DNA of 20,865 nt from a virus, in UHGV virus genome UHGV-1781188. One strand, given 5' to 3'. This document shows positions 1,167 to 20,837 of this stretch, one piece after another. The position numbers were made by a program, and so were the translations under genes. The stretch's first letter is position 1; the number at the start of each line of letters is the position of its first letter. The notes beneath the pieces are model-generated. The model searched no databases and was not told the origin of the DNA. It saw only the letters and a list, made by a program, of their open reading frames with translations.

Positions 1167-1199
1167 AGGGGCTTTAAAAGGCCCCTTTCTTTTTGTCTG
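1167..1199 (+). terminator. rho-independent terminator
   Basis: GGGGCTTTT / AAAAGGCCCC near-perfect hairpin followed by tttctttttgtc. Confidence 0.6.
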
Positions 1200-1802
1200 T
1201 ATTTCTCCTACCACAAACGGCCCAGCCTGGCAAGTGGAATAATTGACTAGCCATCAATCCAACACACTGTACAAACATACATGTAAAATAACTATTGCAT
1301 AATTTTTCATTGTGTGGTAGCAGGTCCATTTTTACCCGCTTTTCCTTCCAAAACTGCATGCAATTCCGCTATTGCACAAAATTTAACCTGATGCACAATA
1401 TCTCTTTCTTGTCAACAACTAAAAATCTTTATAAGTCATACACTTACATAACTACAAAAGCGTGTTCTACGTGAAAAATCGAGTATAACTATAGCCGCCA
1501 GATCTCAGAATTTACGTACGCTCACCATTCTATAGCCAGCTAAGTATTTATTCCGACCATAGAATAACGGAATAGTCAATATCTGCATAAAATAATTATT
1601 CGTGTAAACTGCATAACATAAATCAGCTCAGGTGTCAACATTTTTCGTAAACAGTCCGAAATTATCACGATGAGTTATCATAAACAGAGAAATCTTTAGT
1701 CGTCTAATGTTTACTGTACATTACTATACTGACTGGAATCATTAGATGACTAAGAGAAAGATAAGAAATAATTAATAGTGTAATTATTTTACCTGTAACA
1801 AT

Positions 1803-1980
1803 AAGGCAACTATGCAAACGAATGGCATGGCGCGACGGAGTCGCGACATAATATAAAAGCAGTAACCATCACCCCCGTGATAGTTTGTCTGCAATCTATT
1901 AATCAGATCATAGTTGCCTTGTATTTAGTTAATCATGACATAACAAGCAAGGCAACTATAGATCTTCTAATAGTTGCCCT
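1803..1980. repeat. 11-bp iteron AAGGCAACTAT, four copies in alternating orientation
   Basis: direct at 1803-1813 and 1949-1959; reverse-complement ATAGTTGCCTT at 1910-1920 and ATAGTTGCCCT at 1970-1980 (1 mismatch). Confidence 0.6.
1812..1831. repeat. 20-bp direct repeat, copy 1 (ATGCAAACGAATGGCATGGC)
   Basis: identical 20-mer recurs at 2073-2092. Confidence 0.7.
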
Positions 1981-1996
1981 GCTTTTATATTATGTC
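1845..1996. repeat. 18-bp perfect inverted repeat pair flanking the iteron cluster
   Basis: GACATAATATAAAAGCAG at 1845-1862 and its exact reverse complement CTGCTTTTATATTATGTC at 1979-1996. Confidence 0.7.
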
Positions 1997-2013
1997 ATAG
2001 AAACACCCGAAGG

Positions 2014-2030
2014 GGTGACCAAAGGTCACC
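2014..2030. repeat. perfect palindrome GGTGACC-AAA-GGTCACC
   Basis: 7-bp arms, 3-bp spacer; flanked by cccgaagggg. Confidence 0.6.
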
Positions 2031-2072
2031 TGGCATAGCCAGCGAAAGATTATTAACTTGCTAATCGTTATC

Positions 2073-2092
2073 ATGCAAACGAATGGCATGGC
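2073..2092. repeat. 20-bp direct repeat, copy 2 (ATGCAAACGAATGGCATGGC)
   Basis: identical to 1812-1831; followed by TTATAAT. Confidence 0.7.
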
Positions 2093-2183
2093 TTATAATT
2101 TTTGAGCAAATAGTCTATACGTGAACAGTGAGGCATGCAATAGTAACAATTGTTATTGTATCCAGTGTGTTGAGTATGCCCAG

Positions 2184-2221
2184 TGTGTCACTATTATGTC
2201 ATATTATGTCACAGTATGTCA
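2184..2221. repeat. four helically phased short repeats (TGTGTCA, then TATGTCA x3 at 10-bp period)
   Basis: TGTGTCA 2184-2190; TATGTCA at 2195, 2205, 2215; TGACATA (reverse) also at 1936-1942 and TATGTCA at 1991-1997. Confidence 0.6.
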
Positions 2222-3536
2222 GACAAGTTTTCCTCCTCTTTGTCAAGTGCTGCATGAAAAATTTACAAACTGGTATGGTAGCATTTTTGCGGCCCTGTTT
2301 ACATTCAGTAATGTATGTATAATCCTTGTTGTGTGGGCGTTTAGACGTCTAGACGGTCAGAAGTCCGCAGGTCAATAACTAATCTATCGGCTGCTAACTA
2401 TATCCCACACAAATAGTAAGAAATATAATTGTTATGTGTGTAAACAGTAACTCATGTTATCAATCCCTGTATGGATCGCCAGTGGTGCGCATAATGGGTA
2501 TTATGTTAAATTGCCCGTAATGATAACAGTTCTCACAATGATAGGTATTCTCATTCACCCCCACAAGATAGGTTGCAAATGTTGTGCCACTGTGTGAACG
2601 GCCTCACCTATTAATTTGCCTCACTGCCTCGATATTTGAGAATTGTTATAAGAATGAGAAGTATTCCCATTTCGTCCGCCTGGCAGCACTCCAGTCGCTA
2701 CCGGCTCCTGACAGGGAGGCACTCCTGTCGGTCAGGTCAAAATCATGGTATAACTGGACCTGTTCAGATATTTCTGGCTGGCTCTTCAGGTCTGTGTGGG
2801 AAAAGCCAACCTCTCAGGCGGGGCAGGGGGGTCATGACGGGAAAATTGCAGGTCAATTAAAAAATTTACGTGGTGTATGAAGCGCTCTTCAGGTAAGGCA
2901 TGTATTATGGGATGAAACCCTCTTCAGGCAATGATATTTGTGGGTGTGATATTTGCTGGAAAGCCAGATATGACGGGACTCCCGGCTGGGCAGGGGTAGT
3001 ACAGACAGGGGAAATATGGAGGATGTAGTTGGGTGAGTTGATCAGACAGGTTGGGTATAGATATGTTACAAGTATGTTAAATATGGAGGGTGAATATCTG
3101 TAGGATTTATGTGTAAAATCAAAGACTTAAGTGGTGTTGTGGTATTTTCTATAAATAATTCAAGTTTAATAGGTAATATTTGTCTCTGTCCGCTTTGTGT
3201 GGTAAGCAAATTCAGATGGTGTTGGTTTACAAGTGTATACATAATATACAAATTAAAGATACAAGAAACCCCCCTCCCCCTTCGGCTACCATTCACCTTT
3301 TCCTCTGACTGGTACTTAAACACTTATTCAGACTCTTCAGGTTATCACCCATATATCATATGGCAGTGACTGGTGTCCTCCGGCCCCTCTTTCGTCACCC
3401 GTCCGCTTCGCCATGCTAATGCCATAGCCAATGGTTCGGTTGTTCACCCTGTTCACTCAGGTGTATCTCCATACCCCTTCAAACCGAAGAGAACAGAAAA
3501 CCCGAATTACTCGGTAAAAGAAAAGAGAAGAACTTA

Positions 3537-3564
3537 ATTTTATCAGGATAGGCAAGAATGTCAA
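3537..3564 (-). promoter_or_regulatory. sigma70-like promoter directed into the non-coding region
   Basis: minus strand TTGACA (3564-3559), 16-bp spacer, TAAAAT (3542-3537); no convincing CDS downstream. Confidence 0.4.
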
Positions 3565-3691
3565 GGCATGACTGCTCACTAAACAAGCAAACAGTCATGT
3601 GTGGGAGGTAAGTGATTGTGGTGGTAGGAAATTTAGTTGAAAGATGTGTTATAGGTGCTTCCAGCACTTTAGCCGGGCAGCTAATTGTGTG

Positions 3692-3907
3692 TCAGTCCAG
3701 CGGTTCATCCTCTACTTCACTGAAATCAATGTTCATGGTCTCTTCCCAACCATCGATCTCAGCACAAGAGTGGAGTTCTTTAGGGTTTACTCCCAAAGCC
3801 TCAGCAACAGAGTCTATATTTAACACCTCTGGCAGGTATGATTCATCGAATTCAAGGTAAATCAGGCCACGAGTGTTGTCAGCTCCACCAAATATCTCTA
3901 TCTTCAT
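3692..3907 (-). CDS. small acidic protein (71 aa), MKIEI-type N-terminus
   Basis: ATG with SD agaggaga upstream; acidic C-terminus; N-terminus resembles other MK(I/V)(E/K)I genes in the block. Confidence 0.6.
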   Translation of the reverse strand: MKIEIFGGADNTRGLIYLEFDESYLPEVLNIDSVAEALGVNPKELHSCAEIDGWEETMNIDFSEVEDEPLD

Positions 3908-4026
3908 AAAATCTCCTCTGGGAATGAGAGTGTGAACAGGATTATACGTCCAAATGCGCAGGAATTATGCACGTTTGCCTCTTCAGGCCATGCTTTAGCA
4001 TGAGGAACCTGTGTGGGCTCGGTGCT

Positions 4027-8780: not shown

Positions 8781-9050
8781 TTATTCCTCTACAATCTCAT
8801 ACACATCCGGAGTTACAATCAACTCTTCTCCGTTACCTGGTGCAACAAACACCACCATTCCTTCAGGTGTGTGCTTTTTAGCCATCTCGATAACATCTTC
8901 TCGCAGAGCTGGCTCCATCAGATCAAAACCTTCACCCAGGGCATCACGAACCACCTTCATATAGTCAACTGGTTGTGCTTCGACAATCATGCCTTCAACC
9001 AGTCCACAGTTTTTGTCTGCCAGCTCAGTTTTGAATAATTTAATTTTCAT
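8781..9050 (-). CDS. small acidic protein (89 aa), paralog family B
   Basis: MKIKLFKTEL N-terminus and ...YEIVEE C-terminus parallel 7357-7614; SD gaggaga upstream. Confidence 0.7.
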   Translation of the reverse strand: MKIKLFKTELADKNCGLVEGMIVEAQPVDYMKVVRDALGEGFDLMEPALREDVIEMAKKHTPEGMVVFVAPGNGEELIVTPDVYEIVEE

Positions 9051-19541: not shown

Positions 19542-20837
19542 TCAGCAACCACAACTTCCGTAGTGCTTAACCCGTTCTATAACTTCCGCTTGCTTACCTT
19601 TATTGTAAGGACGGGAGTTTGGACTAGACAGGTACCCGGATACACGTCTGATCACACTGATCGTTCCCTCTTCATGGTTTCCACACTCTGGGCATACAAA
19701 GCCTTTAGCTGTTGCACTAAACTCACCAGAGAAACCACACTTGAGACATTTATCCACAGGTTGGTTAATACCAAAATACATAATGTGTTTATACCCGAAG
19801 TCAACAAGAGCCTCTAAAGCATCCAGGTTGTTTTTCAGATTTGGTGTCTCTACGTATCCGATGTTGCCACCAGAGGAGATCATAGCAAAACCTTCTTCAT
19901 ACTTCCACTTATCAAAAGGAGAGCTATTGATCCATACTGGCTGATGGAAACTGTTGGTGAGATATTCATGCTCGTGCTTCAACACTTCAGGATATTCACG
20001 ATCCAGACAGGTTGCAGCTTTATAGCATAGGCTCTCAGAAGGGGTGCCGTACAAGCTAAATGCTAGTCTACTTTCCTTCTTGTATCGCTCACAAGCATCT
20101 CTCATGTGCTGAAGGATTCCAAGAGCTAAAGCCTTGTCACCCTCTCTGCCCAAAATCTGACAGGTTTCATACACACCAATATACCCAATACTGATGGAAG
20201 CGTACCCGTCATAGAAGAGTTTATCAATACTCTCTTCAGGATCCAGGCGAGCAAGAGCGCCTTCACACCACATGATAGGGTTCTGCCCTGCCTTGGTGCC
20301 TTTCAGACGGTTAACCCTTACAAGGTGAGCCTCGTATGCAAGATCCAGATACTCGTCAAGAACGGCAAAGAAATCAACACCTTCCGTCTTAGCTTTTGCC
20401 GCAATCATTGGCAGGTTAAGACTAACAACACCCAAGTTGAATCTGCCGAGGTATTTCTCCTCGCCTGTTTCCAAGTCATTGTATTTGCTAAGAAAACTCC
20501 GGCAACCCATGCTCGTTACTTTACCATCTGTCGAGCCTGTCACTTTACGATTTAGTGGAACAGAAACAAAGTCAGGATAAATCCGCTCTGCAGAGCATTC
20601 CAGAGCTAATCGTTTCAAATCATAGTTAGGATCTCCAGGGTTCATGTTGACACCCTCTTCTAGGAAGAACAGCACTTTAGGGAACACAGGTGTGATACGT
20701 TCTTCACCAAGACCCATTTTGTGGACTTTCAGGTAGTTTTTGGTAATCATTCTACCAAAGACCGAGGTATCCAGTCCTAAACTCAATGTGATGAATGGAG
20801 TCTGCTGTCTCCTCCCTGTGTTTCCACAGGGCCAGAC
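19542..20837 (-). CDS. nrdD: anaerobic ribonucleoside-triphosphate reductase, C-terminal ~430 aa (5' end lost at contig edge)
   Basis: glycyl-radical motif RRVSGY near the C-terminus; C-terminal Cys cluster CLKC...CPEC; ITPVFPKV...EEGVN...DPNYD...LALEC parallels T4/E. coli NrdD; the frame stays open from 20786 to the adapter junction. Confidence 0.9.
   Translation of the reverse strand, partial: VWPCGNTGRRQQTPFITLSLGLDTSVFGRMITKNYLKVHKMGLGEERITPVFPKVLFFLEEGVNMNPGDPNYDLKRLALECSAERIYPDFVSVPLNRKVTGSTDGKVTSMGCRSFLSKYNDLETGEEKYLGRFNLGVVSLNLPMIAAKAKTEGVDFFAVLDEYLDLAYEAHLVRVNRLKGTKAGQNPIMWCEGALARLDPEESIDKLFYDGYASISIGYIGVYETCQILGREGDKALALGILQHMRDACERYKKESRLAFSLYGTPSESLCYKAATCLDREYPEVLKHEHEYLTNSFHQPVWINSSPFDKWKYEEGFAMISSGGNIGYVETPNLKNNLDALEALVDFGYKHIMYFGINQPVDKCLKCGFSGEFSATAKGFVCPECGNHEEGTISVIRRVSGYLSSPNSRPYNKGKQAEVIERVKHYGSCGC

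Follow-up and report, generated by a model that had tools for sequence, protein, structure and literature searches.

The 20,865-nucleotide (nt) stretch of the virus genome UHGV-1781188 that was analysed here, referred to throughout as the window, carries at positions 3564-3537 on its minus strand a predicted promoter which we read, with a probability of roughly 0.45, as that of an unannotated, Vequintavirus-specific non-coding RNA gene whose product would be stable and would act in trans. The sequence that follows the promoter, about 262 nt long and here called the unit, is a new, unannotated and sharply delimited feature of this phage genus. The non-coding RNA is favoured because the promoter hexamers are frozen while the spacer between them changes, because the unit is the most conserved sequence in its surroundings, because it holds no conserved open reading frame (ORF), and because its ends are sharp.

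When the 2.5 kb around the promoter was compared with phage records, 122 matches of 90-99% identity were obtained, nearly all of them to Escherichia Vequintavirus (rV5-like myoviruses). The window runs in the reverse orientation to the rV5 reference. Two blocks of genes converge on a gene-free stretch at about 1190-3690: the plus-strand block ends at 1148 and is followed by an intrinsic terminator at 1167-1186, and the last minus-strand gene ends at 3692, which places the promoter just past it, as had been noted in an earlier, sequence-only reading of this DNA. The rV5 genome paper of 2013 reported "no observable ORFs" at 104013-106618 and drew the region as a grey "non-coding" box of 2.5 kb (PMC3606486). 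The promoter and the unit lie at the right edge of that box.

Loci for comparison were collected from GenBank relatives, from public assemblies by way of the neighbouring 71-amino-acid (aa) protein, and by pattern scans. The element is carried by 44 loci, comprising 32 distinct sequences, and these fall into three lineages. Lineage A is the ordinary GenBank type. In lineage B (L003, L027-L032 and L044, where L numbers denote single loci) the unit is 97.7-98.9% identical and the adjacent genes 80-88%; this lineage has a promoter spacer of its own and two insertions of its own within the unit. Lineage C (L023-L026) was met only in Logan assemblies, namely DRR842905/06/11 and SRR23924973, and has adjacent genes of 73-79% identity. 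Of the unit it preserves the initial 100 nt (approximately 85%) together with both terminal tracts, and the remainder is rewritten and shortened.

The near-consensus arrangement TTGACA-N16-TAAAAT described in the sequence-only reading was found exactly where it had been placed, with 11 of 12 consensus positions and a TG ahead of the second hexamer. Sites of the form TTGACA-N15-18-TANAAT occur three times in the window, compared to an expectation of 0.10, and none of 100 dinucleotide shuffles reached three. Nine sites in the window match at least 11 of the 12 positions and all are oriented along the local genes, so the promoter is the last of a strong early-type series. The sequence TGATAAAAT of its -10 region is also present, identical, in the published rV5 promoter P074. 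The published list (Kropinski et al. 2013, Table S4) comes from a search confined to the regions upstream of ORFs (PMC3606486), which is why the present promoter is missing from it. Among the 32 distinct sequences the spacer takes eight forms, 16 or 18 nt long, between unchanged hexamers, and the six bases between the -10 hexamer and the conserved block vary by lineage (TAAGTT versus GAAGGC). Judged by its letters, the site has every sequence feature of the extended -10 sigma-70 promoter class. From the geometry of the promoter we infer a transcription start at 3531-3529.

Conservation begins at CUUCUC, at about 3530 where initiation would be expected, and stops exactly at GAAGGGGGAGGGGGG, the G5AG6 run at 3283-3269, plus UU. 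Diversity was examined by aligning 18 related loci over 7.3 kb and comparing 260-nt windows with the flanking protein genes. Between 3265 and 3524 only 13 of the 260 columns are polymorphic (5%), compared to 1124 of 3509 (32%) in the flanking genes (Fisher p = 2e-25); the nucleotide diversity, pi, is 0.014 in the unit and 0.087 in those genes, and this is the lowest value among all 260-nt windows of the alignment. Taken in 50-nt bins, identity to the window is 88-97% in most protein-gene bins and 97-100% over 3251-3600. These comparisons show, at the level of sequence, that the unit is under much stronger constraint than the neighbouring protein genes. What allele diversity there is lies mostly in two hot spots, the patch at 3434-3427 and a loop at 3357-3355. 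The G run itself varies by slippage (G5AG5, G6AG6, G5AG7 and G5TG5-6). In every lineage it closes the unit at its 3' end, 247-261 nt from the predicted start in all of lineage A; past it the sequence is unrelated in L016, L039 and lineage C. The unit is present in a single copy in the window (nhmmer).

A pattern scan of 5,426 complete E. coli genomes did not reveal the unit, and a 21-base core pattern of it was not found in 185,579 species genomes. In IMG/VR and the JGI metagenomes the core pattern was seen only on contigs of Vequintavirus size or fragments thereof. No homologue was detected in LTH01, a more distant member of the Vequintavirinae which shares the convergent junction and whose gene-free region, of 1.75 kb, is unrelated, nor by nhmmer in the Seunavirus, Mydovirus and Certrevirus loci around a shared regulator gene (4MG, PVP-SE1, KNP2 and CR3), where the synteny is different and there is no large non-coding region. 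The gene-free region of LTH01 (L050) does contain a G5AG5AG5 run on its minus strand, at about 8888-8910.

The sequence-only reading had held that no credible ORF follows the promoter, and had allowed for a conserved small protein encoded downstream. No downstream ORF proved to be conserved across the lineages and no such protein was found: on neither strand is there an ORF common to all three lineages (32 distinct sequences), and every reading frame is broken by indels, which fall in the spacer, the body and the G run. There is no pattern of third-position variation, the block being simply invariant. A small protein gene, in the form either of a 39-aa ORF (3598-3479, minus strand) or of a 54-aa ORF (3373-3537, plus strand), is therefore a very improbable explanation. 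ORFs of 39-56 aa are present in lineage A, and the 39-aa ORF is annotated in HMD-6 and NHEP1, but this ORF starts upstream of the promoter, has no Shine-Dalgarno sequence, and loses its frame through the +2 spacer change of lineage B and, in lineage C, through two insertions of 1 nt.

In none of the GenBank records examined is the unit annotated as a feature. The features listed under it are non-conserved 'hypothetical protein' ORFs, and in the listed records the promoter and the first 100 nt bear none. Automatic annotation fills the gene-free region as a whole with short 'hypothetical proteins', 16 of them in NHEP1 (L006, 1476-3899), and these calls, which are not conserved between relatives, look spurious. 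Some assemblies carry a call of 208 aa in the G-rich segment (for example L031, 5248-5874). It was rejected as spurious, the ORF being split across frames both here and in relatives and its sequence not looking protein-like.

The coordinates of the promoter, the unit and the features in and around them are collected in Table 1.

Table 1. Positions in the window of the predicted promoter, the conserved unit and associated sequence features
Feature	Positions	Strand	Remarks
-35 hexamer TTGACA	3559-3564	-	6/6 consensus; invariant in 32/32 distinct sequences from 44 loci
Promoter spacer TTCTTGCCTATCCTGA	3543-3558	-	16 nt here, 18 nt in lineage B
Extended -10 TGaTAAAAT	3537-3545	-	hexamer TAAAAT 3542-3537 (5/6), TG 3545-3544; invariant in all lineages
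Conserved non-coding unit (predicted RNA)	3269-3530	-	length about 262 nt in the window, 289 nt (lineage B), 206 nt (lineage C)
5' pyrimidine tract CUUCUCUUUUCUUUU	3516-3530	-	kept in three lineages, one extra U in lineage C
3' purine/G tract GAAGGGGGAGGGGGG	3269-3283	-	in all lineages, with slippage variants
Hairpin CCGA-loop-UCGG, then U-rich run	3488-3514 (hairpin 3514-3502)	-	terminator-like match
7-bp complement UUCGGUU (3488-3482) / AACCGAA (3441-3435)	3435-3488	-	both strands identical in all 32 sequences
Hairpin GUAU-GGAG-AUAC	3474-3463	-	within UUCGGUU/AACCGAA; substitutions in loop
Hypervariable patch CCAUUGGC	3427-3434	-	at least 7 alleles among lineages A and B, block otherwise invariant
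Hairpin CCAUAU-GAU-AUAUGG	3349-3363	-	loop varies (GAU, AGU, GGU), stem kept
C-rich, G-poor zone, putative Rho-utilisation/termination	2750-3266	-	composition
Palindrome ATGACTG-N17-CAGTCAT	3568-3598	-	7-bp arms; ends 3 nt upstream of -35
9-mer CTCTTCAGG, six copies	2782-2790, 2885-2893, 2920-2928, 3333-3341, 3979-3987, 20232-20240	+	

If the unit is a non-coding RNA gene, host RNA polymerase would begin transcription early in infection, at about 3530. In the transcript, the CU-rich 5' end would pair with the G-rich 3' end through many G-U pairs, and this closing helix would shut a multi-helix RNA with the first 100 nt as its conserved core. Polymerases that read through, whether they started at the unit's own promoter or come from the operon upstream, which lacks an intrinsic terminator, would enter about 500 nt of C-rich, G-poor RNA and be stopped by Rho. 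The closing helix would then bring trimming from the 3' end to a stop, and this would account for the exact coincidence of the G run with the limit of conservation. Once mature, the RNA would be a stable molecule that binds protein or RNA and works in trans during infection.

Several features of the predicted RNA are consistent with this scheme. The closing helix joins the first 11 nt of the 15-nt CU tract to 11 nt of the 3' purine tract, with 98% of cells paired, and was recovered in independent minimum free energy (MFE) folds of all three lineages. About half of its pairs are G-U, so that it is possible only in minus-strand RNA. The predicted pairing of UUCGGUU with AACCGAA would enclose a smaller hairpin, and the substitutions observed in the unit cluster in predicted loops and in one linker patch. 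The sense strand folds better than the antisense strand, both in the window (z = -2.0 versus -0.6) and as an alignment (fold energy -154 versus -121).

The segment immediately past the unit has a consistent composition. Over zone 2750-3266 the C/G ratio of the transcribed strand in the window is 1.7-3.7 for 500 nt, and over the first 400-500 nt past the unit in L016, L027 and L023 it is 1.4-6.8. The first 200 bp past the unit are 63-74% A+T in four lineage representatives (window average approximately 57%). No similarity was found by BLAST between 3432-2694 of the window and L023 of lineage C. Since the composition is kept without the sequence, the zone looks like a Rho-utilisation and termination zone, and selection on composition is suggested. 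Such a zone would explain the missing intrinsic terminators at the convergent junction; bidirectional terminators had been expected by the rV5 authors between genes 163 and 164, and none was found (PMC3606486). The first decent intrinsic-terminator-like site (CACCC-UUCG-GGUG followed by UUUCU, minus strand) lies at 2004-2017, about 1.25 kb past the unit. The same stretch is the G/T-biased segment into which the sequence-only reading had the promoter pointing (about 2750-3250, plus-strand GC skew +0.385). The segment does lie downstream, but the first 260 nt of the transcript (3530-3269) are not part of it, and it begins only after the conserved block, which that reading had not noticed.

A number of observations weigh against a trans-acting RNA. 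Searches of the literature on Vequintavirus transcriptomics, start sites and non-coding RNA yielded nothing on this locus, and no data on transcripts or on their 5' or 3' ends for any Vequintavirus. Folding is only marginally better than chance, with z values of -2.0 for the window, -0.85 for L027 and -0.8 for L023, compared to -0.6 to -1.0 for the antisense strand. Covariation was uninformative: among the 32 sequences no pair has changed on both sides and 500 of 500 shuffles equalled the observed score, the sequences being too similar. RNAalifold gave a covariation term of +0.59, with one pair changed on both sides that depends on the alignment. A long 5' hairpin proposed by MFE folding and by RNAalifold was rejected, as lineage C breaks six of its pairs, and the alternative helices were picked after the variation had already been seen; the modelled secondary structure of the unit is thus not statistically supported. 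The near-total identity, loops included, exceeds what secondary structure needs, and would fit equally a DNA-level element or a recent exchange of modules between phages. Finally, no local terminator hairpin was found at 3300-3260, where the unit has its 3' end, and L016, L039 and lineage C lack a U-tract behind the G run. Of the non-coding RNA proposed in the sequence-only reading, the comparative part (frozen hexamers, 262 conserved nt, no ORF, sharp ends) is strongly borne out, and the structural check that it called for, with no pair changed on both sides and the z values given above, did not add to it.

The RNA might act in cis. It would then be a replication primer or origin-activating transcript; this is the main alternative, in line with the origin activation named in the sequence-only reading, and we regard it as unlikely but worth keeping in view. 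Its G5AG6 end would stay paired with the C-run template (3283-3269) as an RNA-DNA hybrid, or make a hybrid G-quadruplex there, and the 3' end or the displaced strand would start phage DNA synthesis or load a helicase in the A+T-rich DNA beyond. A strong promoter is indeed aimed at a G run split by an A and followed in all lineages by 200 bp of A+T-rich DNA (69-72%), and conservation ends exactly where the switch from RNA to DNA would lie. The unit is moreover placed in the only large non-coding region of the genome, beside clusters of repeats and inverted repeats and a repeated 9-mer. The rV5 authors were unable to locate an origin, and one of the rV5 skew inflections falls in this region; rV5 also encodes a PIF1-like helicase (PMC3606486), and for the mitochondrial element CSB II (conserved sequence block II), where the G-run mechanism is documented, Pif1 has been proposed to resolve the hybrid (PMC3488243). 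However, the skew changes here from + to -, as it does at a terminus or under convergent transcription and not as at an origin, and the rV5 authors ascribed all the inflections to changes in transcription direction (PMC3606486). L016, L039 and lineage C show no sequence conservation in the DNA past the G run, DnaA boxes are not enriched (5 versus 3.07 expected), and no plus-strand promoter-like site of the RNA I type with at least 9 of 12 matches was found within 3260-3600. The C-rich RNA beyond the G run would disfavour extension of an R-loop, and a primer role does not account for some 250 nt of near-invariant sequence. A more elaborate version, rather unlikely in our estimate, would make the unit an rV5-like replication origin switch: a folded primer RNA whose G5AG6 run would be locked in an R-loop or hybrid G-quadruplex until the PIF1-like helicase and the replisome took over, with the CU-rich 5' end competing for the G run and so deciding between priming and release.

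The unit could also function as DNA, as a cluster of protein sites or as a packaging, recombination or partition-like site, with the promoter incidental or serving to modulate access. Identity that is nearly complete even in predicted loops, the lack of covariation, the palindrome abutting the unit, and the copy of the 9-mer CCTGAAGAG/CTCTTCAGG that it holds (3341-3333, with three further copies just downstream and one upstream) would all be in keeping with such an element. We nevertheless consider it improbable, as the block starts at the predicted start site and does not extend evenly over the promoter, where the spacer is free to change, and as the complementarity of the ends needs G-U pairs and has meaning only in minus-strand RNA. 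Lineage C, in keeping the 5' 100 nt and the terminal tracts and rewriting the middle, behaves in the modular way that RNAs typically do. The 2.5-kb non-coding region contains the beginning or end of several GenBank records; these break points are scattered and so do not point to a pac or cos site. There may, lastly, be no dedicated product: the promoter would only add transcription at the end of the early operon, for instance to feed Rho termination or to oppose rightward transcription over the convergent junction, and the identity would reflect the recent spread of a module by recombination. Strong promoters of the same sense do occur approximately every 2 kb in this gene block, and Vequintavirus genomes are mosaic here (L023 is 92% identical in the left flank and 68-80% in the right). 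We give this explanation little credence, because lineage B combines its own spacer and two insertions with a sequence otherwise about 98-100% identical, which recent transfer would not give, and because the edges of the block match functional landmarks in every lineage. The non-coding RNA gene remains the reading we prefer.

Some further elements within and next to the unit deserve description. The hairpin and U-run at 3488-3514 sit 17-43 nt into the predicted transcript and resemble an attenuator or weak terminator, which could attenuate transcription. In lineage C the changes in this hairpin fall in its loop, and a change of A to C at 3515 adds a C-G pair. The palindrome at 3568-3598 keeps its arms throughout, and both lineage C and L044 have a different 17-nt centre. 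With no U-tract behind it, it is no canonical terminator; it could serve a phage regulator as operator, or protect the upstream mRNA as a 3' hairpin. A CsrA-type GGA decoy was considered for the RNA and dropped, since a hand count gave six GGA against approximately six expected and the GGA in the loop is lost in several isolates. No Rfam 15 family, pRNA included, matched the unit (best scores 11-13 bits, against thresholds of 45-109), and ARAGORN found no transfer RNA or transfer-messenger RNA.

The 9-mer occurs six times in the window, always in one orientation, compared to 0.18 expected. Five of the six are gathered in 1.2 kb around the unit, one of these inside it, and at the position of that copy lineage C retains CCTGAAG. 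The 9-mer may be a repeat bound by a protein. At 1796-2092 there is a dense cluster of repeats, with four 12-mers of the ATAGTTGCCTTG type in both orientations, an inverted repeat with perfect arms of 18 nt (1845-1862 / 1979-1996) and, at 1812 and 2073, the equally perfect 20-nt direct repeat ATGCAAACGAATGGCATGGC. This cluster is 92% identical even to lineage C, and in architecture it resembles an origin or iteron array. The motif (A/C)TATTATGTCA(T/C)A was noted in three close copies at 2191-2214, of which two overlap in tandem. The left border of the gene-free region is variable, as the 139-aa gene beside it (729-1148) is missing in L002, L009, L010, L012 and L017. Comparison of L023 with the window gave 92% identity left of about 2118 and 68-80% right of the non-coding region, a difference which places a recombination breakpoint inside the gene-free region. 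Nineteen GenBank records (MG0656xx) named 'Campylobacter phage', with Campylobacter as host, are 92-99% identical here to E. coli Vequintavirus; the naming probably reflects contamination or misattributed hosts.

Phages of the rV5 type are among the most frequently isolated E. coli phages, and are met in O157 typing, in biocontrol and in the BASEL collection. For these phages a blank non-coding box now becomes a precise, mutable target of about 330 bp which is more conserved than any neighbouring gene. The predictions are an early RNA of about 262 nt, Rho-dependent control of read-through, and an effect on replication or on the success of infection. Should the RNA act in trans, it would represent a new non-coding RNA family of phages; should it prime replication, a large lytic coliphage would have an R-loop or G-run origin that the host polymerase drives.

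The predicted promoter has its closest counterparts in the extended -10 early promoters of rV5, with which it shares TTGACA, TGnTAAAAT/TATAAT and the spacing, its -10 region being identical to that of P074; it differs from those listed in having no gene after it. The zone past the unit is like Rho-dependent terminators (rut regions), which close operons and sRNA genes and take at least 80 nt of poorly structured RNA rich in C and poor in G, in providing about 500 nt of transcript with C in large excess over G, directly after the unit and at a convergent junction. That likeness is one of composition only, and the bias could serve the opposite strand.

ColE1 RNA II and the middle-promoter transcripts of T4 oriF and oriG are primers of R-loop origins, and CSB II is generally made up of two G runs split by one A. 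These origins, together with the human mitochondrial light-strand promoter (LSP) and CSB II, have in common with the present locus a promoter directed toward a short G-rich element and then easily melted DNA, and the unit ends at that element. They differ from it in that the unit has no antisense promoter of the RNA I type, the DNA downstream is not conserved and the skew is terminus-like; compared to LSP-CSB II, the polymerase would here be the host sigma-70 RNA polymerase and not a single-subunit enzyme. At CSB II the nascent G-rich RNA terminates and forms the replication R-loop, and Pif1 is the helicase proposed to resolve the hybrid (PMC3488243).

As a discrete, promoter-driven and untranslated phage unit, which the present one is predicted to be, it resembles the pseudo-ToxI of PhiTE, the pRNA of phi29 and RNAs C and D of T4, although its sequence is unrelated to any of these. 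In phi29 pRNA the 5' and 3' ends can pair, as is predicted for the unit. PhiTE, which has been described as rV5-like, expresses its functional non-coding RNA (pseudo-ToxI) from a non-coding locus (PMC3475682) and offers a precedent for a stand-alone RNA; the unit differs from ToxI in having no 36-nt tandem repeats of that kind. We file the unit as a member of neither the stand-alone phage non-coding RNAs nor the R-loop primers, and on its sequence it could work like either.

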